The notes under the pieces: generated by a model
Seen by the model: the letters and a program-made list of their open reading frames with translations, nothing else
Told to the model about the DNA's origin: nothing
Database searches by the model: none
Part shown: positions 723 through 60,404 of the stretch, piece after piece
Layout: the number at the start of each line of letters is the position of its first letter
Numbering within the stretch: the first letter of the stretch is position 1
IMG/VR virus record: IMGVR_UViG_3300045988_167796
Span: 68,032 to 132,031 of that record
Origin: a virus
Reading direction: 5' to 3' (one strand)
Length of the DNA: 64,000 nucleotides
Position numbers and translations under genes: made by a program

Positions 723-923
723 ATGAGTCTCGACAAAGCAATAGAACACGGAAAAGAAAAGAGAAAACCATATATAGGCGCAAAAGCTAGAGATTGTACT
801 TGTAGGAATCATGGTAGTTGCGAATGGTGTAGAGGAAATCGGTTACATCAACAAATACGAGCTGACGAAGTAAGTAGACAGGAGTTGGAGGATTATTATG
901 ACAGTCAGAGAATTAGTAAATGA
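723..923 (+). CDS. hypothetical small Cys-rich protein
   Basis: ORF starts 3 nt after previous stop; CxC...CxxC pattern. Confidence 0.3.
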   Translation: MSLDKAIEHGKEKRKPYIGAKARDCTCRNHGSCEWCRGNRLHQQIRADEVSRQELEDYYDSQRISK

Positions 924-9894: not shown

Positions 9895-9936
9895 AGACTA
9901 TAGTGGCAGAAAATTTATATTTTGGGGGAAACCTTT

Positions 9937-10302
9937 TTGAAAAATAGAATCTGCGTTATCGTTTCGGTAGTACTATCCATACTGTTATGTATGTGCTTGT
10001 TTTATAATCTTGTCGCAGGTGCTCCAGAGGAATATGAATCTGCAATAAGATACATGATAAGCGCTGCTGGATTTTCTGTTATTGTCTCTGGCTTAGTCGG
10101 ATACTCCCTCTATAAAATTTTCTTGTTTGAAATATCAAAAGAGAAAAAAGATGTTAAAGAAACAAAGAAAATAACAGACAAATCATATCAAGATTCCTTA
10201 ACTGCATTAGTTAGTGCATTTGAAAAAGAAGGAGCGTTATCAGAAGATGAGATAAATAATCTACGCTCTTATTTAGACAAAATAGACAAATCGGAGGAAT
10301 AA
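9937..10302 (+). CDS. small membrane protein, partner of the M56 protease (ORF track start 9922)
   Basis: 2 TM segments; TTG start after gggggaa RBS; 4-nt gap to next gene. Confidence 0.45.
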   Translation: MKNRICVIVSVVLSILLCMCLFYNLVAGAPEEYESAIRYMISAAGFSVIVSGLVGYSLYKIFLFEISKEKKDVKETKKITDKSYQDSLTALVSAFEKEGALSEDEINNLRSYLDKIDKSEE

Positions 10303-10306
10303 CAGT

Positions 10307-41300: not shown

Positions 41301-44300
41301 CTGTTAACGTTTCGGCAAGAGTGATATTCTTATTCTTCTGATTGATAGAAGACTTGTTTTCGGAAATTGCCTTGTACAGGTTGATCTTACTTTCTGTTCT
41401 GGATATGAGTGTTTCAATCCAATCTTTAACATTATCAGAGATTTTCTTGATAAGGTCTGAGAGTGCTTCGCTGGCTGTTGAAATAGAATCTGCAGAAGAA
41501 GAAAGATCGGAAGCGGCTTTTTCTAAGTCTTTAGAAGTCGATGAATCTGATGTTGTATTTTTATTACCGCCAATAGTTTGTCCTGAACTATTTATGGTAG
41601 CATAAGCAGGCATACCATTATAAGCTAATGTACCGGACGCAAGGGCACGAGCATGTCCTTTTGCTTTACCATGCTTCATAAGATCTTCTGTTTGTTGTGC
41701 GTTTAAAACTATGTCGCCTTTCTTTAATGCCTGTGTATGCATTCCAGGAGGTAGTAACATCCATTTATCCCCACGGACAATTGACTCACGACCTAACTCA
41801 TTTACTAAAGCAACTTCGTCATGTTCTAATGCTACTTTTCCATTTGAATATGCATTCTTATAATTAATTGCATTATATGCTGTTCCATAAGCATGTGTAG
41901 GAACTGAAGATGGAGACGACATTGTACCATGAGCAACCCCATTACCACTTTTATTTACTGTGATAGTAGCAGTTCTATGATTTATGCTTGCAACAGCTGC
42001 ATTTACTGCATTTATAAGATTGTTTGTATTACCATCAATTTTAATGGTTGCAGTTCTATGATTAATGTTTGCAACAGTTGTGTTTGCTACATCTATAGCC
42101 TGAGATGGGTCTGCATCAATTTTAATTTGTGGTTCTTGGTCTTTTGCGTATTCTACAGTTTCGTCTACTTTTTCTTTTGCTGGCTCATTATTACCATCAA
42201 TCGTAATTTCTGTAGTATTTTGGCTTGCAAGTAATTGACCAAATTGGTCTTCAGCCATCCTGACTGTAACAGATGCATCTGCGCCTTCTTTAATTGTCTG
42301 TAATGACTCACGTATTGCAGATAATTTTTCTGTAGCACCTTCATCATTAACGTCAACACCACATTTAACAGCAAATTCAGGATCTTCCATACCAAGTAAA
42401 GCATCAATATCGCCATTTGTATTATTTAAAGCAAGATTTACTTTTTGTTGTATTTCAGTTTGTTCTATCAACGAACATATAGCATCGTACTCATCTGTTT
42501 CTGGAACAAGTTTTGCTTTGATATTAATCAGATCGGTATATCTTTGTGAAAGCTCGTCATCTGACATTTCAGAAATATTGGCGGTCAAATCAATATTTGA
42601 ATTAATCTGACCGAGTTCCTGCATCCTTTCAAGCTTAGTAATACCATCTTGTACAGACTGAGTATCAACATCAACTTTTGGTTTTAAAGCACCAATAGCT
42701 TGTAGTGCGTTCAAAAGCTGAGATACTTGTTCTTGTGATAATCCGGCCTGATCTGCAATTGCCTGTAAAGCATCTTCGGCAGCTGTCATATCACCAGATA
42801 CATCATATTGTCCATTTTCTAATTTGATATTCTGTAAATCTTCTGCACTATACTGGCGCAGTACATCGAAATAGTCTTTAAACGCATCTTTTTGTTCTAT
42901 CAACTTAAATTTTGTTGTGTCAAAATTCTTAGTTTCTTCTGGTGATAAAGATAATCCTAAGTCTTCAGCTGATAATGGATTTTCTATAGAACCAATTCCT
43001 GCGTCTTTTATTGCTTGATTTAAAGAAGTTTCGTCAACTTCGAAGTTGGTAATTTTTACGCCGTACTCTTTTCCAAGATTCTCAATTACTTTACCAAGAC
43101 CTTCTGCTAATTGAGTATTTCCGGATTTTTCAGCTTCTTTTCTTATTTTATTTAAATAAGATACTTGATCTTTTAAACTTGAAAGACCTTCTGCATATGA
43201 TTCTGCGGAAACCTGTTTATATGTTTCTGTAGCAGTGGTCAAATCAATAACCTGACCTTTTAACTGCTCAATAACTGCCATTTGATCTGCAATTGCTGTT
43301 TCGGAAGCGCCTGATGATTGCATTTCAGCAAGTTTTGCATACGCATCTACGAGTTTTGTATTTGCTTCCTGTATCTTTTCTGTTCCTTCTGTTTCAGAAA
43401 GAACAGTAGTATCAACAAATCCATAATCCTGTGTTTTAGCAAGAACATCATTAAAGAATTCTTGTCCCATATCCATATCATAAGCTGCCTTTTTAGCATC
43501 TTCGATATTAATTTTCCAAGACTTTACTCCGTTAGCAAGAGTTTCATATGTAGCGTATCCTTTTTTATTTAAATCTTCTAAGAAGTTTACTACACCTTTA
43601 GAAGAATCTTCTGTAAGATATCTTTGAGCTTTTGCATAGTTTTCTGCAAAGTTAGCAGCGTCTTCAAAACCGTTAGGAGATAAGTACTTAGCAACAGTTT
43701 TGAAATCATCTGTTCCAACTAAGTTTTTATCATATGCTTCTTTTGCGGTCTTTAAATCAGAAATCATCTGATCATAATTACTTCCGGCATTCTTTGTGTT
43801 CTTAGCATCTTGAATTGCCTGGAAATCAGACATTTGTTCCATCTGAGATTTATACTGAGCAAAATATTGAGCTTGTCTCTGCATTAATCCTTCAAGATTA
43901 CTTTGCATTGCCTGTAATTTAGAATCAGTATTTCCTAATCCTATTTGATCCTGATAAGACTTAATAGCATCTTTCTGACGGTTGATTTCTTCAGTAAATT
44001 TACCTTCCTGAATGGAATTTTGTTGATTGATAAAATCTTTAAGAGCAGAAGTGTTGACTTTTACACCTTTAGCTGATAAATAGAATACAGAAGACGGATC
44101 GTATCCTTCAAGGTCACTAAACTGAGTATTCAGCGCTTTTATTGAATCATTCGTTAATCCTGTTTCAGACTGAAGTTCGCTCATTGCAGATGAGAGAGAA
44201 GAAGAGAGATTTTCAGCATTTGTCACCGGAAGATTCTGCATAGCTTCAGTCCACTCATACTGACTAACAAGCATATTATCTATAGATGCATTGCATTCAT

Positions 44301-46638: not shown

Positions 46639-46660
46639 TATGATAAATAAGATGTATAAT
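46632..46660 (+). promoter_or_regulatory. sigma-70-like promoter ATGACA-17-TATAAT for cargo genes
   Basis: hexamers upstream of aaaaaaggagag RBS. Confidence 0.45.
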
Positions 46661-46686
46661 ATAAATAAAAAAGGAGAGCGATTTCA

Positions 46687-47112
46687 ATGTTAATAAAATG
46701 TCCTGAGTGTGGTAAAGAAGTATCAGATCAATCTGAAGCATGTATTCATTGTGGATATCCGCTGTTAAAAAACAGGAGATCGTCTGTGACTGAGTACCAT
46801 GGAGAATGCCCATTCTGTCATGCAATAGATAATTGGAGAATAGATACTGAAAAAGGAGAAGCTATTTGTAATAAATGTGGATGGCGAGAAACTATTGATG
46901 ATACGCAGTGGAAAATATATTGCAAGCTACAAAGAGAACGTGAACAAAAAGAATCCGAAAAAAAACAATCCGAGAATCTTCCAAAATGTCCAAAATGTGG
47001 TTCAACATCTATAGGAACAAAGAATAGAGGATATTCTCTTATCTGGGGATTTTTAGGATCCGGAAGCCCTAGAAATGTATGCCAGAAATGTGGCTATGAG
47101 TGGAGGCCGTAA
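46687..47112 (+). CDS. triple zinc-ribbon protein (3x CPxCG...CxxCG)
   Basis: strong RBS; three CxxC..CxxC pairs. Confidence 0.55.
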
Positions 47113-47134
47113 ACTTACCAAAAGGATATACACT

Positions 47135-47896
47135 ATGATTACAAATAATGAAAACGACAGAAGAATCATTAAAGAAACATACGATTATTTCAATAAAAAC
47201 GCTTATAGCATACAAGAAATGAGTATTGATAATATATATGTATGCAATGATATTCAAAACGACATTAATATATTTTTAAACAATGATCATATAAATAAGC
47301 AATGTAATGGTCATACTATTTATAAAAATGCAAAAAAAACTGAAGATATAATTATTTTAGTAGAATTGCGTGAAAATATGCCAGATAACATAATAACATT
47401 ATTCCACGAATTTATTCATGTGTATGATATCAAGTTGTTCTTACAAAAATATCATACTCTTGATAATGATTATTTTTATGCATATACAGTATGGAGTGAA
47501 TTTCATGCTTGTTATATAAGTGAAAAATTATTAATAGAATACTATAAAAATAATGGTATCCCAAATATAATAAATGATTTTTTAAGTACAAAAGAAGAAC
47601 AAATCAATGAAATACTTAAATATATAAGAATTGCTCACAACCGCGAGATGTCAATATTTGATAAAATGAATATTTTTGCTAAGCTTTTTCTTTTCGGGTA
47701 TTATGAAGATTGCGGCTATCATTTTGTATATGAATTTATAGACCATTTTTATAATGATTTAGAAGATCGTATTAAAAATTATAATATTACAAATTATTTA
47801 TATCAATGTTTGGAAAATGATTTTAATATTGACACTATTACTTATTTTAAAGAGTTGATTTTTGTTAAAGATATTAGCGACTCATCTACTTCATAA
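47135..47896 (+). CDS. HExxH-motif protein, possibly ImmA/IrrE-like metallopeptidase (ORF track start 47075)
   Basis: HEFIH motif; aaaaggat RBS before ATG 47135. Confidence 0.45.
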   Translation: MITNNENDRRIIKETYDYFNKNAYSIQEMSIDNIYVCNDIQNDINIFLNNDHINKQCNGHTIYKNAKKTEDIIILVELRENMPDNIITLFHEFIHVYDIKLFLQKYHTLDNDYFYAYTVWSEFHACYISEKLLIEYYKNNGIPNIINDFLSTKEEQINEILKYIRIAHNREMSIFDKMNIFAKLFLFGYYEDCGYHFVYEFIDHFYNDLEDRIKNYNITNYLYQCLENDFNIDTITYFKELIFVKDISDSSTS

Positions 47897-47910
47897 TACG
47901 TAAAACATTA

Positions 47911-47945
47911 AAAGAGCAGATTATTCTTTCTGCTCTTTATCATCT
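47911..47945 (+). terminator. rho-independent terminator (10-bp perfect stem)
   Basis: aaagagcaga-ttattctt-tctgctcttt. Confidence 0.55.
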
Positions 47946-48036
47946 TTATAAAATATTTTATTATCATCAATACATATTCCATGACATATAATTGTGCTAG
48001 AATCGATTATTTGATATCTATCTTTACATATAAACA

Positions 48037-48501
48037 TTAATTCCAATTCACCATCCATGATATCACCTCTTCAATTGTCATTTCTGGAAATACTGTTTTC
48101 ACTATTTCAAAAGTATGCTTTTTTACTATTGTTTCATTTATCTCTTGAAAATAATAATGTACTAATTCTTCAATAAAAATAAATAATTGCATATGTTTAT
48201 TATTGCATCTAATGATTTTTTCCATTGAATAAATAATCAATGGCATACATCTCCCATATGTTGTAATAATTTCTTCTGTCACTGAAAAACTTCCATCTTT
48301 AGAAAAAATTAAATTAACCGGAAGATACTTAGAAGGATCTATTTGTTTTTCGTACAACGATCTGCTTAAAGCTTCTAATCCTTTTGTAAATAAGCATGCC
48401 AACTGTTCTGGAACTTCATATAAAGCATTCATATGAATCCTATCAGAAAAATATGGCGGAGCTATAGGAGCATAAGTTTTTACTGAATTATCTATTCTCA
48501 T
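48037..48501 (-). CDS. hypothetical 154-aa protein inside TMP intervening sequence 2
   Basis: ORF track; aaaggatt RBS. Confidence 0.4.
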   Translation of the reverse strand: MRIDNSVKTYAPIAPPYFSDRIHMNALYEVPEQLACLFTKGLEALSRSLYEKQIDPSKYLPVNLIFSKDGSFSVTEEIITTYGRCMPLIIYSMEKIIRCNNKHMQLFIFIEELVHYYFQEINETIVKKHTFEIVKTVFPEMTIEEVISWMVNWN

Positions 48502-48911
48502 ATTGATATAATCCTTTGTATTATTTGTATGATTATATCATAAATAATTAAATATGCAAACTGTTTTTACCTTCATCAGCAAACGGCAGAAGAGTAGTGC
48601 CGAGTGGAATACCACTATTTTTTTACCTTGGAACATTCATTAAAAGCATATACAATTATGGCATGTATATACTCTCAGGAAGGGTGCTCTCTCTACACTT
48701 CCTAACTTTTTATATGTTTCCCTCGCCATTGCTTGCGCAACTTCTACTAACGTATCACATATTACTAAACGTAAGTTAGGTTGGCTCGTGCGTCACCGCG
48801 GAACATAAATATATTTCTATAAATATGCTTTTGTTTCATCCTTTTTCGCTGTAGCGGCTTCGACGAATTAATCCTGTATTTATTTTATGCCGATCATAAT
48901 CACTGCATTGA

Positions 48912-49385
48912 TTACCACGCCATTATGTGGTTCTCTTTACAATAACAGCCCCATAAGTTATATCGGGAATAACAGCCTGGATTTGGCTGAGCTACGGCAT
49001 TGCTAAGTCCTCCGGACTTAAAGAATTTAAATAATTGTGAAAGACCATTTTTACCAAATGATAAGCCAGCGATTGTGGCTACCAAAGTTTTGATTGGTCC
49101 AACTGTTTGTGCTAGATCTGTAAACGCCTCTGTAAGACTTATTACAAAATCCAGTATGTTTTTAGTTCCTGCAGAATCATAGAATGACAACCAGAACTCA
49201 TCCATTTGAGCTTTTATTTTAGTTATCTTACCTGTAAATGATTCTTCGTATTTTGCCTGATTCTCAAGTGCATTTCCTTGTGAATTTGTTGCTTCTGTAG
49301 CTAAAGACATAGCATCTGACCAGGCTGTAAGTATATTTTTGAATTTTGATGACTGTCTTGTCGATAAATTAAATACGATTCGCAA
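48912..49385 (-). CDS. tape measure protein, middle segment (about 130 aa of TMP-like sequence; 3' end probably intronic read-through)
   Basis: TMP-like hydrophobic GPIKTLVATIAGLSFG; no RBS; frame open upstream to HE stop. Confidence 0.45.
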   Translation of the reverse strand: MRIVFNLSTRQSSKFKNILTAWSDAMSLATEATNSQGNALENQAKYEESFTGKITKIKAQMDEFWLSFYDSAGTKNILDFVISLTEAFTDLAQTVGPIKTLVATIAGLSFGKNGLSQLFKFFKSGGLSNAVAQPNPGCYSRYNLWGCYCKENHIMAW

Positions 49386-49418
49386 GATCGTACCGATATT
49401 GTTAATTATTTTCTCCTT

Positions 49419-50333
49419 TTATTCTTCTATAAAAACTCCATATTTTATAAACATATCAAATAATATATCATCCATAAATAATTGGTCCCAGTATGGAATT
49501 CTAATAAGTTTAATATTATTTTGTTTACAGTAATCTGTTTTTATTTTATCTCTTCTTTGAACTTCTGCAAATCTGTTATTTGCTTCTTGTTCTGACATTT
49601 TATTTCCTATTCTAATTGATTTATGATGGAATTCTCCGTCGTATTCTATAGCAATATTATATTCATCTAAATAATAATCAAACGGAAGAGTGTATTTATC
49701 CTTACAATCGCTAAATCGTTTTTCTCTTGTGTATTTTAAATTCCACATATCCAGTATTTGTCCGATCATATTTTCGTAGAAATGACTTTTACAATGAGGA
49801 CAACTTGTGCTTTTTAATAAATTTCCTGAAAACTTTTCTTGAACACCAACATTTTTATGTTTGTTACATATATATTTTATATATGTATGGTTATTTTTAC
49901 TATAAGATTCTACAAATGTAAAATCTCTTTTCTTGCATTCTTCCTTCCAATAATCATTATTTTTTTTATGAGAATTTATTGTCTTTTCTCTTCCGCACAT
50001 AAAACATCCTATTCCTCTTAATAAGTCACATAAATTAATTTGCTGTATGCCATAATCAGGATGTTGTTTACATATATACTTCATTTTAGTTGTGTAATTT
50101 ACATATACTGTATCAAGTAATGTATAACCCTTTTTATCAAATAATTCTTTTACTTCTTGATATGTATAAATTTTTGTATTGTTTACAGTTTTTTCTTTTC
50201 TAATTAAACGAAGTCTTCTTCTTTTAGCTTTTATAGATTCTTCTGTAGTTTGAAAAAATTCAGACAATTCTTTATCTGTTTTATCTTTCCATAATTCTTT
50301 TAATTTATCTTCGTTTTCTTTTGTCCACTTCAT
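49419..50333 (-). CDS. intron-encoded homing endonuclease (tandem Zn-finger-like modules + PD-(D/E)xK/DUF559-like nuclease)
   Basis: two repeats KYICxxHxxxGxQ....LL..xxCxxC; C-term IEYDGEFHH...KTDYCKQNNIKLIRIPY; aaaggag RBS. Confidence 0.55.
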   Translation of the reverse strand: MKWTKENEDKLKELWKDKTDKELSEFFQTTEESIKAKRRRLRLIRKEKTVNNTKIYTYQEVKELFDKKGYTLLDTVYVNYTTKMKYICKQHPDYGIQQINLCDLLRGIGCFMCGREKTINSHKKNNDYWKEECKKRDFTFVESYSKNNHTYIKYICNKHKNVGVQEKFSGNLLKSTSCPHCKSHFYENMIGQILDMWNLKYTREKRFSDCKDKYTLPFDYYLDEYNIAIEYDGEFHHKSIRIGNKMSEQEANNRFAEVQRRDKIKTDYCKQNNIKLIRIPYWDQLFMDDILFDMFIKYGVFIEE

Positions 50334-50353
50334 ATATTATCTCCTTTGTATTA

Positions 50354-50548
50354 TCAATTTTTTGCATAAAAAATCGCCAGGGCTTTAAATAGCTCTGACG
50401 TTTTCGTGTACTTATATGTTGTTACTTCATTTATTACTTTTGTAAACGAAGGTTTTATACCGATACTCAATAAATATTCCTTTTCTGGAGTATATTGAGT
50501 AGAATATTCTTTATCATATTTTTTCATTATTCTATCATTAATTAACAA
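50354..50548 (-). CDS. small ORF within intron (uncertain)
   Basis: ORF track only. Confidence 0.2.
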   Translation of the reverse strand: MLINDRIMKKYDKEYSTQYTPEKEYLLSIGIKPSFTKVINEVTTYKYTKTSELFKALAIFYAKN

Positions 50549-50902
50549 TATCCTTATATTTTCATATAAGTCTAGACTATATCTTCACCTTCAGCATTAC
50601 CTGTTCAGGGTACACCATTTCCATTTAAGGGATTTTCACCTACTTCATTTGCGGTTAAGCCGTACTCCTATTGTTATAGATATTTATTCTCTAGTCTATA
50701 ACCCGACATGGGGATAGTCGTTAAGCGTTCTCCATATATAAAAATTATATTTAGGAGCTTCGTTGTGGATTGCCTATTGTTGCATCTTCTTATTTTTTAT
50801 AACATTCATATTACTTTTCAATAATATTGTAGTATAAAAAGCTTTAAGGGTTCCCACAGTTAGATGTATTCTTAATATATATTTCTATATATTCAGCCCA
50901 AA

Positions 50903-53900
50903 TTAAGCTGCTACGTTATATGAAATGTTACTTTGCTGTGCGTCGGACAGAGTATCCCACTTAGCACTCAGTTCACTCAAAATAACGTCAAGATCACGGA
51001 ATGATCCGTCAACATTGTATACTTCAATTCCAACTTCATGAAGAGATTTAGAAGCGTTAGATAATTCTTCATTACTTACATCTGAAGCATATTGCGGCAT
51101 TTTACCGACTTTTGATATTCTAGTAACAATTGTCTTTATTGCGTTTCCGATGGATCCACCATCTTCACGTGTTCTTTCGGCCACTTTTGCAGAAACAGCA
51201 GCTAACTGTTCATAAGACATACCTGCATCATATGCAACCTGACCAGAAGCTTGCACAGCATCAGAAATAACCTTTATTCCACGCGCATAATCTATTGCGA
51301 CGTTCGATGAAATCTTATCCAATACATCAACTACATGCATAGAAGCATCTGCAGCACTTTGAGATCCATCTTCAAGCATATTGAACTGCTGTAAAATGCC
51401 TTGTACCTGGTCAGCAGCAGTAGAAGTATCAACGCCGCTTAAGTTACTCAGAATAGCTGTAGGTTTTGCAGTTTCATTAATCTCTTCTGCAGTGGTATTC
51501 ATATTTGCATAAATCTGATAGATATCCATTGCATTTTCAAGAGACATAGAAAGATCCTGCGCCATATCAATAGCAGATTGACCTAAACTATTAAGCTGTT
51601 CTTTGGTAATATCCATTGTATAGCTAATAGTAGTAAGATTATCATCATATGCTTTAAGCGTTGAAAATCCTTGTTGAAGTTGATTTATCATTGTAGATAT
51701 AATTCTATAGCTACTTACATATGAAGTAACCATTTGCATAATGTCTTTAAGACTTCCACCAGCAATACTTCTTAATGCACTTCCAAATGTTTTGAATGAT
51801 GCATTAGCTTTTGATTGCTCTGTAGATGTAATACGAAGTGCATTATTATATGTTTGTAATGTACCAGTTACAGTTGTGATTGCTCCTGCTTCGTTTTGAA
51901 ATTGAATTGTCGCAGTACCTGCATTTTCATTTACTTTAGATGATACTTCCTTACCAAGAGAATTTAATTCTGCATATTGTTTTACTCCTGCAATAACATC
52001 AGATATATCTTTTGTAATACCTTCGCTACCAGAAATGAGAGTTCCTTTACTGTTAGTCTTATCATATGCTTTTGCATTTTTAGAAAATTCTTTGATTTTA
52101 TCTGACAGTTCATCTAACTGTTTTATTTTTTCATCAGTGTCAGTTGTATCGTTTGATAAAATACCATTAAAAGCTTCTGCAAATGAATTAATTTTTGTAG
52201 TGTAAGATGCTACTTTATCTGAAGAATTAGCAAGCTTATTTAAATTTGAAATTTGCTCTTCAATGTTAAGCGCTTTTCCGCCAAATCCATCTTTCCAAAA
52301 AGCCATTGTGTTTGATGCTTTTTGACTTGCTTCTATAAACTTCTGGCTATATGTAGACGCATCTCCGTTATAATCTCTTGTTAATTTATTAATTTCTTCC
52401 TGTACGCTAGCAATATCATTTTTTGCCTGAGCAGAAATAGATCCTGTTTCTTTTATCTTAGATGCAAATGTTTCTAACTGATTAGTAATTTTCTGATTAT
52501 TAGATGCTAATGAATCAGTAGTTTTTGAATCAAAAATAGACTGAATATTACCAATAGCATTTTGCTGGAAATCCTGTCCGTAGATATTATTAACTTCTTT
52601 TTTTAAACTTTCATAAGATGCTCTAACAACTTCCATTGCATATATCTGTTTATCAATATCTCCTGAAAGAAATTGAGAATTATTTTTACCGGACATTTGT
52701 AGAATTTTATTCTCAGAATCTCTCATAGCAGTGTAAGATTTCTTCATAGCTTCTACAAGATTATCATTGTTGTTCTTTGAATTCTCAATTGCCTTTGTAT
52801 ATGATTCATTATACTTATCTACTTTATCAGGACCTAAGATACTTTTATTTTTAGATAAGAAATCACTTTTATAAAAAGTATCTACCTCGGACTTTAATGC
52901 GGAAACTTTATTTTTTGCATTTTCAATTTCAGACGTATAGTCTGCGAACGGATTGTTTGCTTGTTTACCTTGAAGAGAGAATAATTCATTCTGAGCTTTT
53001 TCTAACTCTTTTACTTTTGCAAGAGCCTTATCGTATTGATCAATAATCGGTTTCTTTACTTCTTGATTATCCTTTGTATTTTTGAGATTGTCTGTAGATT
53101 TTCTTAAGTTTAATTCTGCATCTCTATATGCATTAGCAATGTCTTTTGAAATAAATTTATCTTTATCTTTAAAAAGATCATTACTAATAATTGAGTCTAA
53201 AGATTTTTTGTCAGATTTAATATTTTTATTTAAATCCTCAATTATTTGCGAATTTTGTTGATCAGAAGATTTACTTATTTCTTTTGATAAATCATTTTGT
53301 AATTTAGATATATTCTTTGAAAGATTTATCGCTTGTTTTACTTTGTTTGTTATGTATTCATATATCGCATCAACATTATTAAAAGCAGAAGTGCTTTCTG
53401 TAGGCAGGTTTATATTACCAAAATTTTCAGATGCATTATTCTTGTCAATAATTGAGAGCCATTTATCCCAGTTAGATTTAAAGCTTTCTGTAACAATTGG
53501 TAATGATTGTTCTGATTTATTTAAAGACTTGAATTTTGCATCAAATATAGATAAATCAAGATTTGTAGATGCACCAGATAATATATTACGAAGATTTTCT
53601 ATTTGAGACGCAACTTGATCAGAATACTTGAAAGAGTCTTTCAATCGTTGTTCAAGATCATTCAGTTCTTGTTCTTTTGCCTTTTTCTTTTCATCAAGTA
53701 AAGCATTCTTTTTATTAGAATCAGATATTCTTTTGTTGTCTTTTTCTAAATTTTGCTGTTGCTTTATTTGTGTATTACATTCAGAAATTGAGTCGCGTAG
53801 TTTACCAGCAGCTTCTGCTTGTTCGTAGATACCAGATGCATCCTTTAATTCTTCATTTAAATCTAACATCCTACCTACTGACTCAGACAATTCGTCTGAT

Positions 53901-56131
53901 GGATCATTTAAAGCATTAAAAGCACTAACAACGCTACTTACTGTTGATTGCAAATTATTAACACCAAATAAATCTTTCTGATTTGTTTTAGAAGAAGAAA
54001 ATATCTTTTTCTTTTCTGCTTCAACACGTTCCATGGATTGAGCAAGACCGTCGATTTCATCAACAGAAAATATATGTTTTAATCCCATATATCCATCTAA
54101 TTGCATTGCATTAATTTTGCCGCCCATTTGAAGGTCTATATTAGCAAGGAATTTATCTAATTTTTCATTTGCTTTTTGTACTTTTACAGATTCTTTTTCT
54201 GCTTCTGTTTTAAGACGCTTCATGTCTTCAACAATACGTTCTGAAGATACTTCTAATGTTCCTTCATCTGTAGGAGAGTAAGTGGTAGAAGTGGTAATAT
54301 ATGCATTTTGATCTTTTTCTGTTTTTACTTGAGTATGCGAACGAATATTCCCATCAGAATCCTTTATAGTTATTAGCTTATCAGAATCTCCTTTTGCAGG
54401 AATAGCGTCTTCTGTGACTGCTTTCATTTCTTTTCGTTCTTTTTCTATTGCTTGTGAAGACTTCTCTGCACCGGCAGCAACCATCTGATTCGCACTATTA
54501 AAGTTTTCTTTTGCAGTAGCAGCTTTTCCAGCAGCTTTTTCAACTTTCTCAAATGCTTTTGATTCATTTTCAAGCTGTTCATTTGACTCTTCTGTATTTG
54601 TCTGTGGTAACGCTGGAGTTTGATTAGAAGCGTCAGGAGCATCAGGAGATTGACTTGGTTTATGAGAAATTGGAGTAGAAGGAGTATTTGATACAGGTTT
54701 TTCTTCTGATTTTTGCTTATCTGTTACTTTAGGTTTTTCTTCTTGTTTTTTCTTTTTAGAATTTGCCGTTTCAGTTTTTTTCTTCTGTTTAGCAACCTCT
54801 TGTTTCGTTTCATCAAGTTTCTTTTCTGATTCAGCTTCCTGGTTATTCGCATCTACGATTGCCTTTGCTTCTTCTTGCAAAGGTTTTGTGTCAACTTTAG
54901 GAGCCTGAATTTCTGCCAGCTTTTTAGAGAACTGCTCGTCTGTCATAAAAAGAACATCAGAAATCGTACTTTTAGCCAATTCGTATTCTTTACTAAGTCC
55001 TTGAATGTAATTTTCAATTATATCATTAGGCTTATTACCATGTTTTTTATATACAGCATAATCTCCTAAGAAATTCATAATTTTAGTAGGAGTTTCTAAT
55101 TCATCCAACGCGATTTCAAGATCCTTCGCTTCTCTTGTTTTACCTTGATAATCTTTTAATATCTTGTTTACATTCTTTCTAGCTTGCTCTGGTTTTTGTG
55201 TACGAAAACGAGACATTTTACCAAACATTTTATTATATTCATTTTGATTTTTTAATGCCTCTTTTGCATTGTCGCTATATGAATACTCTAACGCTGCTAT
55301 TCCTTCATCTAGTTTTTTAGTATACTTTTCAAACTGTGTAGAACTAAATTCTTTTCCTTCATTTACACTATTAATATACTTATGGATTCCAGATCCATCA
55401 TAAATACTCTGTATTAATCCTTGCCTTATTTTATCATATTGAGATTTTGGATCTACTTTATTAATTTTTTTTATAACATCGCTTCGTAATTGCTTACCGT
55501 CATCTTTATTTATTTCATTTAATGTTTTTATCAATGAATAATATAATTGAGCTGAATCTCTATACTTCTTAATTGCATCCGGATTCATTGATGAAATATT
55601 TGGAAACGAACCTGTGCGCTGAGTGAATTCACTTTCTAATTGCGTAATTGCCTTTTCAATTCTTTTTATTTTTGTATATCTATCTGTGAGTTCTGTTCTT
55701 TCTACTTCAGATAGTGTCTTACCTATTCTTTTTTCATAATTAGTAACATAAGTTTTTACTGTACGCTTTCCAGAATTGTCTAACTCTGGAACGTATTTCT
55801 CTATAGTGTTCCAATTTGCTTTTGGAGGTTTATTTCGAGTAAAGTCTTTATTAACGCTGTGTACAATTTTTTGTATTCCATCTTTAATTGTTTTTTCAGC
55901 ATTTTTAGAAAGAGTTGGCGTTACAAGAACTTCGATATCTTTAATACCTTCCAATTTTTTCAATCCTGATGTATCAACTTTTGGTTTTATATTCGATTTT
56001 TCTTTATCTAATTTTTCTAAACTTTCTGTAAGTTTATCTATCTTATTGATCGGCTCATCTAGTTTATTTGCAAGAATATCTCCGCCTTTTACTGCATCCG
56101 ATATGTCAATACCACCATTTTTTATTCCCAT
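50903..56131 (-). CDS. tape measure protein, proximal segment (1742 aa; K/E-rich coiled coil + TP901-family TMP core domain truncated at the C-terminus)
   Basis: C-terminal ~350 aa resemble the TMP conserved core (…AILSNLSGVDTSTAADQVQGILQQFN…VISDAVQASG…); ends abruptly …SNISYNVAA*. Confidence 0.6.
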   Translation of the reverse strand: MGIKNGGIDISDAVKGGDILANKLDEPINKIDKLTESLEKLDKEKSNIKPKVDTSGLKKLEGIKDIEVLVTPTLSKNAEKTIKDGIQKIVHSVNKDFTRNKPPKANWNTIEKYVPELDNSGKRTVKTYVTNYEKRIGKTLSEVERTELTDRYTKIKRIEKAITQLESEFTQRTGSFPNISSMNPDAIKKYRDSAQLYYSLIKTLNEINKDDGKQLRSDVIKKINKVDPKSQYDKIRQGLIQSIYDGSGIHKYINSVNEGKEFSSTQFEKYTKKLDEGIAALEYSYSDNAKEALKNQNEYNKMFGKMSRFRTQKPEQARKNVNKILKDYQGKTREAKDLEIALDELETPTKIMNFLGDYAVYKKHGNKPNDIIENYIQGLSKEYELAKSTISDVLFMTDEQFSKKLAEIQAPKVDTKPLQEEAKAIVDANNQEAESEKKLDETKQEVAKQKKKTETANSKKKKQEEKPKVTDKQKSEEKPVSNTPSTPISHKPSQSPDAPDASNQTPALPQTNTEESNEQLENESKAFEKVEKAAGKAATAKENFNSANQMVAAGAEKSSQAIEKERKEMKAVTEDAIPAKGDSDKLITIKDSDGNIRSHTQVKTEKDQNAYITTSTTYSPTDEGTLEVSSERIVEDMKRLKTEAEKESVKVQKANEKLDKFLANIDLQMGGKINAMQLDGYMGLKHIFSVDEIDGLAQSMERVEAEKKKIFSSSKTNQKDLFGVNNLQSTVSSVVSAFNALNDPSDELSESVGRMLDLNEELKDASGIYEQAEAAGKLRDSISECNTQIKQQQNLEKDNKRISDSNKKNALLDEKKKAKEQELNDLEQRLKDSFKYSDQVASQIENLRNILSGASTNLDLSIFDAKFKSLNKSEQSLPIVTESFKSNWDKWLSIIDKNNASENFGNINLPTESTSAFNNVDAIYEYITNKVKQAINLSKNISKLQNDLSKEISKSSDQQNSQIIEDLNKNIKSDKKSLDSIISNDLFKDKDKFISKDIANAYRDAELNLRKSTDNLKNTKDNQEVKKPIIDQYDKALAKVKELEKAQNELFSLQGKQANNPFADYTSEIENAKNKVSALKSEVDTFYKSDFLSKNKSILGPDKVDKYNESYTKAIENSKNNNDNLVEAMKKSYTAMRDSENKILQMSGKNNSQFLSGDIDKQIYAMEVVRASYESLKKEVNNIYGQDFQQNAIGNIQSIFDSKTTDSLASNNQKITNQLETFASKIKETGSISAQAKNDIASVQEEINKLTRDYNGDASTYSQKFIEASQKASNTMAFWKDGFGGKALNIEEQISNLNKLANSSDKVASYTTKINSFAEAFNGILSNDTTDTDEKIKQLDELSDKIKEFSKNAKAYDKTNSKGTLISGSEGITKDISDVIAGVKQYAELNSLGKEVSSKVNENAGTATIQFQNEAGAITTVTGTLQTYNNALRITSTEQSKANASFKTFGSALRSIAGGSLKDIMQMVTSYVSSYRIISTMINQLQQGFSTLKAYDDNLTTISYTMDITKEQLNSLGQSAIDMAQDLSMSLENAMDIYQIYANMNTTAEEINETAKPTAILSNLSGVDTSTAADQVQGILQQFNMLEDGSQSAADASMHVVDVLDKISSNVAIDYARGIKVISDAVQASGQVAYDAGMSYEQLAAVSAKVAERTREDGGSIGNAIKTIVTRISKVGKMPQYASDVSNEELSNASKSLHEVGIEVYNVDGSFRDLDVILSELSAKWDTLSDAQQSNISYNVAA

Positions 56132-56150: not shown

Positions 56151-56729
56151 TTAACTAAACATTCTAAATAACAAATATGTAGATAGTACTTTATCAGCAC
56201 AACTATCCAATACATTTTTTATACGATCACTGTTTTTATATGAATTAATTTCAGATTCAATCATATTTGAAGCAGACATTGAAGAATAAGCAACTGATCC
56301 CCATATACGCCATGGAATACCAGTTGTTTGAGACGGGTGAGGTGTTCTCCACCATGGTGTGTCAGGATTTGGATGATTTTTTCCACGAATAGCTCCTCCA
56401 TGCCATCCCTCCTCAAATACATGTTCAAATATATATTCACTGCTTACTCTATGAGAATCAGGCATTAAATCAGATCCTACTTCCCATCCTATGTATGTTC
56501 CGTTAAGCGTAATATTGTACGCTTTTTTTAAACTATTTGTTCTTCTATAATAAATAGGAGAGTATGCAGCATAAAATTTATCTACACATTGATCAAAAAT
56601 ATTTTTTATATCTTGATATATTATAGGAGCAGCCATAGATGCAATTTTTTGTGGTATGACTTTTGGAGCATCTCTTTGTACTTGCTCTAATGCATTTTTT
56701 AATACCATTAAGCTTGGAATACCTCCCAT
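56151..56729 (-). CDS. hypothetical protein upstream of TMP (W/H/P-rich C-terminus)
   Basis: ORF track; position of second tail chaperone. Confidence 0.35.
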   Translation of the reverse strand: MGGIPSLMVLKNALEQVQRDAPKVIPQKIASMAAPIIYQDIKNIFDQCVDKFYAAYSPIYYRRTNSLKKAYNITLNGTYIGWEVGSDLMPDSHRVSSEYIFEHVFEEGWHGGAIRGKNHPNPDTPWWRTPHPSQTTGIPWRIWGSVAYSSMSASNMIESEINSYKNSDRIKNVLDSCADKVLSTYLLFRMFS

Positions 56730-56746
56730 TTACTACACCTCCATGT

Positions 56747-57316
56747 TTATTTTATGCTTTTTACAATATCCATTATCTTATCTTTATCATTCAATAAACT
56801 AACCAATTCTTTTGCTCCTTCATTTGCAAACACACCTACAGTTGTAGCAAAATAATTTACATATTTTGAAATATAGGCATCCAAAGTTTTGTTTTCAGAT
56901 TCATAGTTTTCAATAATAGATCCTTGAACGGACATTAGTTCATTAAGTTCACGTTCCCCAATAATTCCACATATAATATTCATAATATTTCTTTCAAATA
57001 ACATATCATAATCTTCAAATGCGTTTGATTCGCTATTTTCATTTTTCTCAATATTTATTTTTGTATATAACAACAGAACAGTAGTAACGAAATTCACTTT
57101 CTGCAGAAATACATCAATATACGATACATTCTTATCTGTTTTAATAATTGTCTTCTCTAACATAGACTGAAGAATAACCTTCTTTTCAAGTATTGGACAA
57201 TACTTTCTCCATATGACAGATTCAACAAACTGATTCTTCTGTTCATCAGTTTTCAACATATCATATCTGCGAACAAATTCTTTTACATCTATTTTTCTTT
57301 CAATTTTTTCAGACAT
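56747..57316 (-). CDS. tail assembly chaperone-like protein
   Basis: position upstream of TMP; aaaaggag RBS. Confidence 0.35.
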   Translation of the reverse strand: MSEKIERKIDVKEFVRRYDMLKTDEQKNQFVESVIWRKYCPILEKKVILQSMLEKTIIKTDKNVSYIDVFLQKVNFVTTVLLLYTKINIEKNENSESNAFEDYDMLFERNIMNIICGIIGERELNELMSVQGSIIENYESENKTLDAYISKYVNYFATTVGVFANEGAKELVSLLNDKDKIMDIVKSIK

Positions 57317-57500
57317 ATTTATTCTCCTTTTGTTTCCGTATTATATATAATAATTTTGTTGATTTTCGTTGTTTTTACCATTATACTTAATACTGAATAT
57401 GAAAGTGATTATAGGTATACGCATTATAATCCGTTGCACGACTTTATATTTAGCTTGCCGGAGTGCAAGTTATGCGCCCTGTACAAAGGAGAATAAATAA

Positions 57501-57662
57501 ATGAATGTAATATTATCATTTATTCTTCTCGCAATGATTATATTGTGCGGAACCATAGTGTTAATATTAGTGCTCACCAGGCATGACAATATTAAACAAC
57601 TTGACTTCCATATCAGTATTAAGAATGGTGTAGAAGTTAAAAGCCTCTTCTACAAAAAGTAG
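57501..57662 (+). CDS. small single-TM peptide (53 aa) antisense to late operon
   Basis: aaggag RBS, hydrophobic ILSFILLAMIILCGTIVLILVL, followed by two hairpins. Confidence 0.4.
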   Translation: MNVILSFILLAMIILCGTIVLILVLTRHDNIKQLDFHISIKNGVEVKSLFYKK

Positions 57663-57693
57663 AAGTGCAGGATTACAAGAAAAAGAAAAATTC

Positions 57694-57717
57694 GCATCAA
57701 ACCAGATGCGATTTTTC
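57694..57717. terminator. bidirectional terminator between convergent genes
   Basis: gcatc-aaacca-gatgc then TTTTT. Confidence 0.5.
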
Positions 57718-57740
57718 TATATAAAATTATATCTTTATAT

Positions 57741-58178
57741 TTATTTGATTATAAACTCAATCTCAGTTCGTGGATTTTCTTTATCATATCCAGTTTTTAA
57801 AGTGAGAGAGTGTAAATGCTTTTCATCATCGTCAACAATTAACCCGGCCTCAGTAAAGCCATCTAAAATGAACTTTGGCGTCAAGTTATCTACATCGTGC
57901 CTTCTTTTAGTGTCAAAAAAGACAGTTAAAACAATATCAAAATTGTCTAACTGCCTATTTTCTAATCCTTCTAACTTAACCCAAAACTTCACGAAATCTT
58001 TCCATTTCTGTTTAAGAGCGTTCATTTGTATTCGTGGTAAAATACACCATGTATTTATAGAAGGATGATATGGTTTTTCAATTGGTATTTTCTTGGCTTT
58101 TGGATGCTGCAAAAAATAATATGTATTATATTTGTCCAAGACAGACTGATCTAACGTCAATTTCAATACATCACTCAT
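57741..58178 (-). CDS. rusA: RusA-family Holliday junction resolvase (ORF track start 58235)
   Basis: RRHDVDNLTPKFILDGF resembles RusA catalytic D-x-D-N block. Confidence 0.6.
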   Translation of the reverse strand: MSDVLKLTLDQSVLDKYNTYYFLQHPKAKKIPIEKPYHPSINTWCILPRIQMNALKQKWKDFVKFWVKLEGLENRQLDNFDIVLTVFFDTKRRHDVDNLTPKFILDGFTEAGLIVDDDEKHLHSLTLKTGYDKENPRTEIEFIIK

Positions 58179-58560
58179 TGATATACCGTCCCGATATTTC
58201 AAAATATATATTATAATTATCATCCCAATTATCATTTATAATTATTTTATCAATATAACATTCATCAAAAATAAATTCTTCAATTTCATTTCGTACACAA
58301 TCTTCCTGATTATAAATCTCTTGCTTATTTATAATATTTTTATGAATTATTATTTTCCTTATTTTACTTTTATCTTTATGTTTATCTAATATCGTACTAT
58401 TAATGTATCCTGAATGTATTTTCAATCGCACCATATTTTCTCTTTCAAGATATTCTTTCACGCATACATTTGATATATTTACTGTATTATCTTGAAATAT
58501 AATTTCTATATTTTCAGTACAAACAATAAAATATTCTTTTACTAATTCTGTATTATTCAT
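58171..58560 (-). CDS. hypothetical protein
   Basis: ORF track. Confidence 0.35.
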   Translation of the reverse strand: MNNTELVKEYFIVCTENIEIIFQDNTVNISNVCVKEYLERENMVRLKIHSGYINSTILDKHKDKSKIRKIIIHKNIINKQEIYNQEDCVRNEIEEFIFDECYIDKIIINDNWDDNYNIYFEISGRYINE

Positions 58561-58610
58561 ATTAGTTTACTCCTTTTATTCCATAAAAATAGAGCAGTAG
58601 TAATATAAAA

Positions 58611-58871
58611 TTAAACCCGCTCATTAATCAAACTGTATGTAATTTCAACCGGAATAATCACAAGGTCCATATTATCTCCGGTGTCACTATAATAATAATC
58701 AAGTATGATCTGTGCCACATCTTTTGAAATTGTTTTTGTTGCGTATTCAATATCATCAGTAAATACATATTTTTTCTGTTGATAAACTTTTTTCACATAC
58801 ATTGTTGGTGCCCCAAGAGTAGCAATAACATACTTTGTAACTTTCTTCTCTAAAATTTTATCCATTTCCAT
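58611..58871 (-). CDS. hypothetical protein
   Basis: ORF track. Confidence 0.35.
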   Translation of the reverse strand: MEMDKILEKKVTKYVIATLGAPTMYVKKVYQQKKYVFTDDIEYATKTISKDVAQIILDYYYSDTGDNMDLVIIPVEITYSLINERV

Positions 58872-58878
58872 ATACGCC

Positions 58879-59193
58879 TCATTTCAATTCTCTATTTAAC
58901 CAGTCTTGATATAATTCTTTAGTTTCTTCTCTTAAGAAAATATAAACATTAATATCGTTACCATTATCATCAATACTAGGATATATATCTATTGGAAATA
59001 CCCTATGTTTTATATATAAATCTCGTTGTTTCGGATTAATAATTCTACATACTTCATTAGTCGTATATGGTCTATATTGCAAATTCGGTTTAATCAAATC
59101 AGACTCATTTTTCATCCTTTTTCTCCTTGAGTAAAAAAAGGGTATAGCTCGAATAGTGAACCATACCCCCTTTATTATTTTATTAATCACCAT
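58879..59193 (-). CDS. hypothetical basic protein
   Basis: ORF track. Confidence 0.35.
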   Translation of the reverse strand: MVINKIIKGVWFTIRAIPFFYSRRKRMKNESDLIKPNLQYRPYTTNEVCRIINPKQRDLYIKHRVFPIDIYPSIDDNGNDINVYIFLREETKELYQDWLNRELK

Positions 59194-59200
59194 TCAAATA

Positions 59201-59554
59201 CTATTTTTTCTTGTTACTATATTTCATGCGTTTTGGACGATTCGCTGTTTCTAAAGATACATCATTAATATATTCTTTTTCTTCTTCGTCCTGTTTTAAT
59301 ATATCATCTAAAATATCAATAACACTTTGATGATATTGTTTTTTATCAGAAAGATCGCATTTTGACAATCTCTCTATTGCTTGTTCTTTTGTAATTTCTC
59401 CTGCTTTGTAATTTGTGGCAGTCATAAATATCTCTCTGCAATTATTCGAGCAGTAAAGTGCCATCCATCTTGGGAGATGATCAAATTCTTCGCATCGATT
59501 ACAAAATGTGTATAGATTTTTACACAAAATACATGTCTTATTATCACGTAACAT
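59201..59554 (-). CDS. Cys-rich zinc-finger protein (possible late regulator)
   Basis: CxxC...CxxC...CxxxC pattern. Confidence 0.4.
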   Translation of the reverse strand: MLRDNKTCILCKNLYTFCNRCEEFDHLPRWMALYCSNNCREIFMTATNYKAGEITKEQAIERLSKCDLSDKKQYHQSVIDILDDILKQDEEEKEYINDVSLETANRPKRMKYSNKKK

Positions 59555-59624
59555 ATGACTACCTCCGCTTTACTTAATTAAAATTAGCTAATACGCTTTG
59601 ATACGTATTAGCCATGAAAATAAA

Positions 59625-60404
59625 TTATTCTTCGTCTTCTTCAGCCATATAGATGTGATACAAAGCTTTATCAGCTGAGCAGTAATCCACCTGAAGAGAA
59701 CCACTGTAAGCCTGCTGTGCATCAGTTGTAAGACTAATTTCAACTTCCGGAGATACCTGGAAGGAAGGCAGAACAATATAGCATGCTCTCAGAGTATCTG
59801 CAGAACACGGATCTACAGCCAGAGCCTTCAGAGTAAGTTTTACAGTTGATGGGAATTTATCTGCTTTATTAGAAATTGCAACGCCAGATTTAACAGTTCT
59901 ATCGTATTTAACGATAAACTGTGCAGATGCTTCATCTGTAGGAAGGGACAGTTTCCCTTCTTCTGTAATTGCAAAATCTGTTTCTGTTGCAGATACACCT
60001 TTCTTATAAGATGTTCCCATAGCACCATTTGTACCAAGTGCGCTTACTTCAACAGTACCATCAACATAGTCTGTCAGAGTAACTTCTTCACCCTTTTTAA
60101 CAACGATAATTTTCGGCATCTGAATGGGCGCCTCATTTGTTGCAACAATTTTACCTTCGCCGGATGCAGCTCCAATAACATTCAGGTTAATCATAGCGTT
60201 ATTAGCTGTGAATTCACCTGATTTACCTTGCCAGAAACGTTTGATCAGAGTACCTGTGTTGTCAACAGCGTCTTTGGAATCAGCAGAAATACTAATTGTA
60301 GCATCCGCAAGCTGAGTAAGAACATACAGCGGATTACCATTAAAATCTTCTGCAAAACCATACTGAACACGGTCAATAATAATATCATCTAATTTAAATG
60401 CCAT
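59625..60404 (-). CDS. putative major tail (tube) protein
   Basis: A/G/T/V-rich beta-type composition, size; guess only. Confidence 0.35.
   Translation of the reverse strand: MAFKLDDIIIDRVQYGFAEDFNGNPLYVLTQLADATISISADSKDAVDNTGTLIKRFWQGKSGEFTANNAMINLNVIGAASGEGKIVATNEAPIQMPKIIVVKKGEEVTLTDYVDGTVEVSALGTNGAMGTSYKKGVSATETDFAITEEGKLSLPTDEASAQFIVKYDRTVKSGVAISNKADKFPSTVKLTLKALAVDPCSADTLRACYIVLPSFQVSPEVEISLTTDAQQAYSGSLQVDYCSADKALYHIYMAEEDEE

Follow-up and report, generated by a model that had tools for sequence, protein, structure and literature searches.

A predicted membrane-peptide cassette beside a conserved resolvase slot in the late tail operon of a distant SPbeta-like phage

We analyzed a 64,000-nt stretch of viral DNA (IMG/VR virus record IMGVR_UViG_3300045988_167796, positions 68,032 to 132,031), hereafter the window, which is a portion of the 171,722-bp metagenome contig ena:ERZ27229639:k119_175764. 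The window has a GC content of ~30%, and its late genes are located on the minus strand. From the tail tube gene to the gene for the tape measure protein (TMP), the minus-strand order is, 5′ to 3′, o259 (tube), a hairpin, o117, o104, o86, o129, rusA, a 424-nt gap, o189, o192 and TMP. The best explanation of this region is probably a conserved slot for a RusA Holliday-junction resolvase in the late operon and, separate from it, a moron-like cassette in the 424-nt gap, which encodes a 53-aa peptide (pep53) on the opposite strand and would be expressed from the prophage.

The pep53 gene and its leader RNA

pep53 (57501..57662, plus strand) encodes a single-pass membrane peptide of 53 aa, with a predicted N-out/C-in orientation and a conserved C-terminal motif. 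A single transmembrane (TM) segment and a good ribosome-binding site (RBS) had been claimed in the initial annotation, and both were confirmed: a hydrophobic segment spans residues ~3–25 (Kyte–Doolittle up to 3.2), and AAAGGAG is located 9 nt upstream of the ATG. Shine–Dalgarno (SD) matches of at least 6 nt precede only 3 of the 109 unannotated ATG open reading frames (ORFs) of 40–70 aa in the window, pep53 included. The remaining two are intergenic or border on annotated genes.

Searches with pep53 alone, by word-indexed protein search and by back-translated scans of IMG/VR, metagenomes and GTDB genomes, returned no matches. Scanning related loci for intergenic, SD-preceded TM ORFs on the opposite strand revealed peptides of 50–63 aa with a pep53-like C-terminal pattern in loci L072, L053 and L049. 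A family profile search gave 139 proteins of 48–63 aa (one of 83 aa), none with a Pfam domain, and an exhaustive profile search of 1.84 billion representatives placed the family in 63 clusters at 50% identity. The scan and the exhaustive search rule out pep53 as a singleton. Close 53-aa homologs, for example MNIYVFIILAMILLCGILCLVLVLTKCDNIKQLDLHISLNSGIELKSLFYKQQ, were found by phmmer with pep53 against the retrieved representatives (E 1e-21 to 1e-10), and carry the same tail, DNIKQLDFHIS..KSLFYKK. Conservation in related elements, on which the initial annotation had made its case for the peptide depend, is thus present. The C-terminal tail motif of the family is h-x-h-x-h..G-h-[DE]-h..S-F-Y.

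A hidden Markov model (HMM) built without pep53 ranked it first among 470 window ORFs (E 7.6e-6), and in a phmmer search of pep53 against the 10,810 ORFs of all loci the top matches were nine family members, as they were when the query was only the C-terminal 29 aa. A C-terminal HMM, in which sequences of the L053 type dominate, was not significant for pep53 (E 0.46), and we therefore rely on the rank statistics and the close homologs. Ratios of dN/dS were 0.07–0.32 for the L053 type, 0.12–0.27 for the pep53 type and 0.39 for the window against L181, which is the only valid comparison for the window, as L180 and L182–L185 were misaligned by a one-residue indel. These ratios indicate that the family is under purifying selection. 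No match to pep53 was obtained in Pfam, PHROGs or NCBIfam, nor in Pfam for five family members (E≤0.1–1), and the similarity to phrog_251 (MokW-like; E 0.04) covers the TM segment only and is not significant. Judged by sequence, pep53 is a real gene of a conserved, undescribed family. Gene callers can overlook real genes among the small ORFs on the opposite strand of phage late operons.

In loci L072 and L053, a soluble protein of 54–66 aa is encoded after the TM peptide gene on the same strand (L072:9336-9500(-) and L053:7016-7216(-)). The two soluble proteins have a MEYI(H/K)QNN motif in common, are absent from the window, and may be partners of the TM peptide.

The 424-nt spacer between rusA and o189 contains, in order, a promoter-like site, a leader of ~100 nt, the peptide ORF, a hairpin at the stop codon and a terminator. 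The promoter-like site is TTGATT-17-TATACT (57359..57387, plus strand); in homologous cassettes, the aligned position holds a TATAAT −10 box. Another TATAAT, at 57425–57430, was tried as the −10 box and rejected, because the alignment shows it to be the 3′ strand of leader helix P2; the −10 box is TATACT at 57382–57387. A hairpin of −10.2 kcal/mol (57645..57668, plus strand) extends across the pep53 stop codon and is followed by a conserved GTGCAGGA, and the sequences CTCTTCTA..TAGAAGTGCAGGA at this hairpin are kept in 7/7 cassettes. The cassette ends in an intrinsic terminator at 57692..57711 (−15.8 kcal/mol, z = −6.95), with T-runs on both strands. It is predicted to be bidirectional, in agreement with the earlier claim that the peptide gene converges on rusA across such a terminator. 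The terminator hairpin is also present in L180, L182, L184 and L185, where its AACCA loop is kept and its stem shows compensatory changes.

Six cassettes of the pep53 type (L180–L185) align with the window over their whole length, at ~70% DNA identity. The −10 box, helices P1 and P2 with a conserved loop, CCTGTAC and the SD, the ORF, the stop-codon hairpin and GTGCAGGA are common to all of them and the window. Each of the seven cassettes retains the SD and ATG, and P2 shows compensatory changes.

The leader of pep53 (57391..57490, plus strand) was delineated with a covariance model. It comprises P1, P2 and a hairpin, and AUGCG, upstream of the SD, is a candidate pseudoknot partner. In cassettes of the L053 type, the ~220 nt upstream of the peptide gene are more conserved than the coding sequence. 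In their consensus fold, compensatory changes are numerous in P1 and P2, CCAGAAAGGAC is invariant, additional hairpins form, and the SD pairs with an anti-SD, in a helix that shows one-sided changes only. In the 5′ domain of these leaders, 16/33 pairs are changed on both sides and 97.8% of cells are paired, compared with 27–41% with slid partners, and 0/500 shuffles reached the observed value. G-U pairs in the helices place the structure on the sense strand of the peptide. A covariance model of this domain, made from the other leaders, matched the window at 57391–57490 (+) with 26 bits (E 0.0016 in 210 kb); at E≤10 the window gave just one further match, of 12.3 bits (E 1.8). The model also matched L180 and L181, the leader is homologous throughout L180–L185, and the minimum free energy fold of the window leader reproduces P1 and P2. 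The loop CGCAU could pair with the conserved AUGCG before the SD as a pseudoknot (CCACA/UGUGG in the L053 type).

Comparison of the leaders of 8 loci with Rfam 15 gave no match at the gathering score, and none that was meaningful at E≤5 (L144); the window itself gave only chance-level Rfam matches, none meaningful at E≤1. By its covariation, the leader is a conserved RNA structure of an undescribed kind, and a candidate new cis-regulatory element in abundant gut Firmicute phages. On either strand, the region 57390–57725 as a whole has a far more stable fold than shuffled sequence (z = −6.2 and −5.1). The short leader of the window was considered as a deletion derivative, and this was rejected, since it is the normal leader of the pep53-type subfamily.

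The leader model also matched upstream of other small TM ORFs, at L049:10227-10352(-), L150:3955-4080(+), L055:5147-5259(-) and L079:11009-11124(-). One of the leader-preceded TM ORFs encodes a 57-aa peptide, MTTIIILSLIVIALVLLIILVFTFNTFSKDVKNAKCKIQFSKYIKFEYSLSLRKNRR, and another an unrelated TM protein of ~60 aa. A terminator-like hairpin follows the TM ORF in L049, L150 and L055, and some phages carry two leader cassettes.

A perfect inverted repeat of 15 nt has its arms at 57316..57330 and 57485–57499, where it forms the RBS and spacer of o189 and of pep53, respectively. The window has no further perfect copy, and the two divergent genes have an identical RBS-plus-spacer, AAAGGAGAATAAATA. 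A third copy, matching at 11/12 positions, is located at 57518–57529 (pep53 codons 6–10) and can pair with the pep53 SD, forming a 12-bp hairpin of −10.3 kcal/mol (z = −2). The window leader lacks the anti-SD part of the L053 type and has this weaker SD hairpin instead. Only the AAAGGAG part of the repeat is common to the homologous cassettes. Gene conversion, selection for RNA pairing, and chance are candidates for the origin of the repeat.

Comparison of gene contexts indicates that other phages carry the cassette as a unit, likewise antisense to their late genes. The peptide gene is opposite to the late operon in L053, L072, L146, L147, L148, L150 and L151. In L146–L148 and L151, it lies ~265 nt from, and divergent to, a gene of 142–158 aa (weak YomN match) that precedes TMP, and converges on the tube-side genes. 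Pep53-type cassettes are antisense to late genes ~6–7 kb downstream of the tube or o117 gene in L183 and L185, and the same antisense placement was found in L182, judged from homologs of o117 and o104. Where the context is known, nearly all family peptides are opposite to the late operon near the TMP gene. Related cassettes were also found in genomes of Lachnospiraceae hosts, among them Lachnospiraceae bacterium A4, Roseburia (for example sp. 1XD42-69) and Kineothrix.

Some family cassettes have other neighbors. In L144/L145 (3237-5637) they adjoin genes with GmrSD_N and TIR domains, and in L180 (300-1507) the cassette is ~3.5 kb from Cas1-Cas2, which hints at defense-island-like surroundings.

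Possible working of the cassette and alternative explanations

The cassette has the properties of a moron in that it is an addition between two genes of an operon, whose spacer is 424 nt in the window and 1–57 nt in relatives, and in that the same cassette is found elsewhere. In the explanation that we favor, host RNA polymerase would transcribe the cassette from its putative sigma-A-type promoter independently of the late operon, for example in a lysogen, and pep53 would insert in the membrane with its N-terminus out and C-terminus in. The leader would gate translation of the peptide, in the L053 type through pairing of the anti-SD with the SD, and in the window copy the hairpin between the SD and codons 6–10 could also do so. 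Transcription of the late operon through the cassette would, in lytic growth, counteract cassette expression. Because the terminator is inside the late operon, the downstream late genes would need read-through, a polymerase that ignores terminators, or a downstream promoter. A candidate for the latter is a near-consensus promoter-like site inside pep53, TTAACA-16-TATAAT (57537..57564, minus strand, 11/12 matches), which reads towards o189.

Several observations weigh against this explanation. The cassette promoter has 9/12 matches, and promoter-like sites are no commoner here than in shuffled sequence. The GC content of the cassette (0.30, compared with a region mean of 0.303) does not show the compositional hallmark of a moron, and its terminator sits in an essential late operon that relatives transcribe uninterrupted. 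The codon usage of pep53 scores −0.10 per codon, like spurious ORFs and below the 0.11–0.40 of annotated genes, which its TM-rich composition could account for, and the contig annotation has no gene call on it. Of the 141 loci obtained by homology to RusA or the tube protein, only 3 have a family peptide, and the cassette is therefore dispensable and sporadic. The cytoplasmic tail of the pep53 family is mostly not strongly cationic, unlike that of classical Gram-positive type I toxins.

For the job of pep53 we can offer guesses, of which the type I toxin or superinfection-exclusion peptide of the initial annotation is a reasonable one. Our own would be a role in protection or maintenance at the membrane. 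Superinfection exclusion, or another membrane-level defense like that of HK97 gp15, is the one we would tentatively put forward; a type-I-toxin-like peptide seems rather less plausible, and something else altogether would account for the remainder. Should pep53 prove to exclude phages or to be toxic, it would matter for how prophages compete and persist in the gut microbiome. By position and product, the HK97 gene 15 moron is the closest functional analog: this gene, flanked by those for the tail chaperone and TMP, specifies a small exclusion protein of the inner membrane that the prophage produces (PMC3594210). In both cases a small protein that crosses the membrane once (pep53 by prediction) is encoded by a self-contained insertion a short way upstream of TMP in the tail operon, but the pep53 cassette is on the opposite strand and has a long, conserved, structured leader. 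With regard to gp15/YebO homology, no Pfam match was obtained for pep53 and five family members, although the presence of a YebO model in the library is unconfirmed and gp15 was not compared directly.

By RNA and peptide features, the closest analogs are prophage type I toxins. The B. subtilis phage SPbeta carries the type I systems bsrG/SR4 and yonT/SR6, and structured toxin mRNAs are a further feature common to type I systems and pep53. Prophages of C. difficile contain type I systems, such as CD0977.1/RCd11, whose toxins are hydrophobic, shorter than 60 aa (unannotated examples have 34–47 aa), arranged in convergent or antisense orientation to their antitoxin RNAs, and present in several copies (PMC7699646). 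Like these Firmicute prophage toxins, pep53 is an unannotated hydrophobic peptide of <60 aa in a convergent or antisense setting, but it has no detected antitoxin RNA gene and no toxin homology, and it has a conserved C-terminal motif.

A true type I toxin-antitoxin system, in which pep53 would damage the membrane, the leader would hold the mRNA inactive and a cis-antisense small RNA would neutralize it, so as to stabilize the prophage or abort infection, is in our view unlikely. It would suit the small, unannotated peptide with one TM segment, the long and structured L053-type leader with its sequestered SD and its conservation above that of the coding sequence, the strong folding of 57390–57725 on both strands, the two cassettes of some phages, the defense or CRISPR genes near some cassettes, and the C. 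difficile precedent. What it lacks is a conserved antisense promoter: L180 and L181 lack the minus-strand promoter that lies within pep53 (alignment inspected by eye), a scan of the L151 cassette (L053 type) revealed no minus-strand promoter, and a transcript from the promoter-like site at 57755–57726 would meet the terminator within ~30 nt. Promoter scans of homologous cassettes and Rfam searches found no dedicated antitoxin RNA gene, and for this reason we do not class pep53 as part of a type I system; the late-operon transcript would be the only candidate antisense RNA. There is also no significant match to a toxin family (phrog_251 over the TM segment only; none in Pfam or NCBIfam), and the conserved C-terminal motif suggests a specific interaction and not a simple cationic tail. 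A variant that we find similarly doubtful takes the leader, peptide and terminator as an undescribed regulatory/effector module, with the leader as a sensor (riboswitch-like, or with a phage RNA or protein as target) and the late-operon transcript as antitoxin. The leader, pseudoknotted and supported by covariation, would then keep back translation of an excluding or toxic peptide except in a defined state, and the fully antisense late transcript would act as antitoxin in lytic growth, in a type-I-like manner without a dedicated small RNA gene.

It is highly improbable that the ORF is incidental, that is, that the spacer is a terminator with a restart promoter for o189–TMP, or a non-coding RNA, and the 53 codons are untranslated. 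ORFs of 40–70 aa are common in AT-rich DNA (109 unannotated in 64 kb), and this one has a codon score like null ORFs, no gene call, a near-consensus promoter on its minus strand, and an RNA that folds well on both strands. However, its amino acids are conserved with synonymous variation (dN/dS 0.07–0.39), length and architecture are the same across the 63 protein clusters, seven cassettes keep the SD and ATG, and the G-U pairs assign the leader structure to the peptide sense strand. We give even less credence to the idea that the 15-bp inverted repeats flank a 154-bp invertible promoter, which would switch between pep53 and o189–TMP. The repeat is perfect and has only two copies in the window, its arms bracket the cassette promoter and leader, and they end at or within 1 nt of the start codons, so that inversion would presumably keep both RBSs. 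Against this, the AAAGGAG part belongs to the cassette itself in L180, L181 and L185, the leader between the arms works in one orientation only, no invertase gene is adjacent, and the phage would not survive the shutdown of an essential tail operon. A single contig carries the sequence, so there is no second orientation to compare.

The resolvase slot in the late operon

The rusA gene (57741..58178, minus strand) encodes a RusA-family Holliday-junction resolvase of 145 aa. The assignment made in the initial annotation is supported by PHROG matches (phrog_1682, E 3e-16; phrog_34, E 1e-14), by a profile of 20 homologs whose sole match among PDB sequences was E. coli RusA (1q8r, 2h8c; E 3e-4), and by conserved motif residues. 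The Pfam RusA model gave no match at E≤0.1, and the relationship to the family is therefore distant. The stretch RRHDVDNLTPKF..DDDE of the window protein aligns with RRRDLDNLQKA..DDAQ of E. coli RusA. In the 20 homologs, D95, N98, K102 and D116–118 are invariant and D97 is nearly so; the catalytic acidic residues and lysine of E. coli RusA are D70, D72, K76 and D91. The similarity to E. coli RusA (PDB 1Q8R, 2H8C, 2H8E) and to phage PHROGs 34 and 1682 is thus a profile-level homology in which the motif residues are kept, the window protein differing by an N-terminal extension of ~35 aa. The window rusA is in a late tail operon, whereas the annotated matches in Lactobacillus and Rhizobium phages are not described as tail-operon genes.

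The true start of rusA is M20 (58178) and not the start of the 164-aa ORF, because relatives align from ~M20 and the contig has a gene call of 145 aa. A further reason is the ATG (58176–58178), which overlaps the o129 stop by 8 nt; rusA is probably translationally coupled to o129. The resolvase would be made late, and may remove branches from replicated or recombined DNA before packaging.

To place the gene order of the window among relatives, we used 141 related loci from IMG/VR, with RusA and the tube protein as probes. The order o254-o259-o117-o104-o86-rusA-o189-o192 is present and co-directional in 62 loci, and near variants in many more. The rusA–o189 spacer of relatives is 1–57 nt and contains only an RBS, without a terminator, or else other inserted genes. 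The short spacers with only an RBS indicate that rusA and o189 form one operon in relatives. Insertions in the window relative to relatives are only o129 and the 424-nt spacer. Loci without a detectable RusA of the window type have a 186-aa RusA of a second type in the same slot (phrog_34, E 2e-25), and the more distant L146 has a RecU-type resolvase (PF03838; phrog_843, E 1e-21) directly upstream of a 196-aa gene of the size of o189. As the slot is filled by any of these three, the comparison indicates that a junction resolvase in the late tail operon is a conserved trait, kept through non-orthologous replacement. The use of two RusA types and RecU in one tail-operon slot suggests selection for late-expressed DNA debranching in this lineage.

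The flanks of the block, tube and TMP, and the minus-strand direction of all its genes are as reported in the initial annotation, but the description of o189 and o192 as chaperone-like is unsupported. That annotation also regarded the block as an island wedged into the late structural operon, and recombination and regulatory genes as atypical of the tail module. Neither holds here, since more than 60 relatives show synteny of the block and keep a resolvase slot, and SPbeta has a comparable segment. A recently acquired recombination/regulation island at 57741–59554 is accordingly very improbable. Recombination genes of well-studied phages are usually located in early regions, which would count in its favor, as would o129, a genuine ORFan insertion of very low GC, and the mosaic identities of RusA and tube, the locus with the best RusA match (84%, L001) having a tube protein only 27% identical. 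These are outweighed by the gene order kept in >60 loci, the tight, operon-like spacers of relatives, the refilling of the slot by the second RusA type or RecU, the GC content of the block, which resembles its surroundings, and the equivalent tube–TMP cargo segment of SPbeta. A single recent clone is excluded by the 50–84% protein identities of the relatives. Judged by its synteny, the tube-to-TMP stretch is a conserved cargo segment of the late operon in this lineage.

In SPbeta (NC_001884), which has the tube family in common with the window, ~10 non-tail genes separate the tube gene (yomU) from the TMP gene (yomI). Among them are the site-specific recombinase gene yomM and the opposite-strand yomL, for a signal-peptide/envelope protein, with stem-loops on both sides. 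The two phages are very distant, the cargo genes are not homologous, and no resolvase is annotated in the SPbeta segment. No useful literature was found on the YomN, YomU, YomV and YomW proteins.

Holin genes are located within the tube–TMP cargo segment of L146, L148, L150 and L151, together with an Amidase_2 gene in L151. Unlike these holin genes, the endolysin gene of the window is far downstream of the segment.

Other genes of the window

The tube protein (59625..60404, minus strand; 259 aa) is of the SPbeta YomU type, as indicated by a precomputed match to PF27173 YomU_Tube (E≤1e-5) and by BLASTP similarity to SPbeta YomU (E 3e-4). It has 57–76% identity to homologs in 62 relatives, and PF27173 is also matched in L146, L148, L150 and L151. 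A terminator-like hairpin with a 12-bp stem and a following T-run is located 3′ of the gene (59585..59614, minus strand). TMP (50903..56131, minus strand; 1742 aa as an ORF) matches PF10145 at residues 1518–1736 (E 6e-21). Tail-fiber genes and the endolysin gene (8170–9810) are downstream of the TMP region, and a tyrosine integrase is encoded at 4941–6149. The annotated phage collection contained no record similar to the region by DNA or to the tube by protein, tblastn of the tube protein giving zero matches in 50,697 phage records. From the YomU tube and TMP Pfam matches, the integrase, and the lack of a similar annotated record, we conclude that the window belongs to a very distant temperate SPbeta-like siphophage or prophage.

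Downstream of the tube gene, o117 (59201..59554, minus strand) encodes a Cys-rich protein of 117 aa (pI 7.5) that is conserved in the lineage, with tblastn matches at the same position in 110 loci. It is the CxxC protein of the initial annotation, having two CxxC motifs (C8xxC11 and C18xxC21) among its 7 Cys; its only family match was a weak one, to phrog_4616, a family of unknown function. The small protein o104 (58879..59193, minus strand) has matches in 107 loci. Its 104 aa are the longest reading, and the contig gene call is 78 aa from 59115, which is preceded by the SD CAAGGAG. The protein o86 (58611..58871, minus strand; 86 aa) is small, acidic (pI 4.98) and conserved, with matches in 96 loci, and in most relatives it is followed by rusA at a distance of 11 nt. 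In the window, o129 (58171..58560, minus strand; 129 aa) lies between them. This gene is an ORFan and a genome-specific indel, with a GC content of 0.21 compared with 0.30 nearby, a strong SD, and no homolog in the 141 related loci or IMG/VR (its 90% cluster has 1 member). The several small basic proteins described for this block were not borne out: o86 and o129 (pI 4.92) are acidic, and o104 has a pI of 9.55 only with the doubtful long start and 5.75 in its 78-aa version.

The late gene o189 (56747..57316, minus strand) is conserved, with matches in 99 loci, and searches of Pfam, PHROG and NCBIfam gave no family match. The conserved gene o192 (56151..56729, minus strand; matches in 87 loci) is directly upstream of TMP, and its equivalent in L148 has a weak match to PF27376 YomN.

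The TMP ORF stops right after its PF10145 domain, which ends at residue 1736 of 1742. It is followed by an HNH or homing endonuclease gene (49419–50333), two small ORFs, a cassette on the plus strand that encodes a zinc-ribbon protein (46687–47896), and a 2765-aa ORF with Big_2 and DUF3597 domains. TMP ORFs of relatives range from 606 to 1786 aa, and L148 has IS605 tnpA/tnpB ~1 kb downstream of TMP. The tape-measure region (window 38341–56131) may be split or interrupted by mobile elements.

Elsewhere in the window, genes for a BlaI-like repressor and a BlaR1-like M56 peptidase (9922–11593, plus strand) adjoin the endolysin gene, and a dUTPase is encoded near the integrase (3859–4410, plus strand). 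In a related phage locus, L072:148-222 (+) matches the RAGATH-18 RNA (Rfam RF03064, 72 bits). Two small ORFs of the window outside the set of large ORFs taken as genes, of 66 aa (723–923, plus strand) and 45 aa (47921–48058, minus strand), are preceded by a strong SD and are probably real genes.

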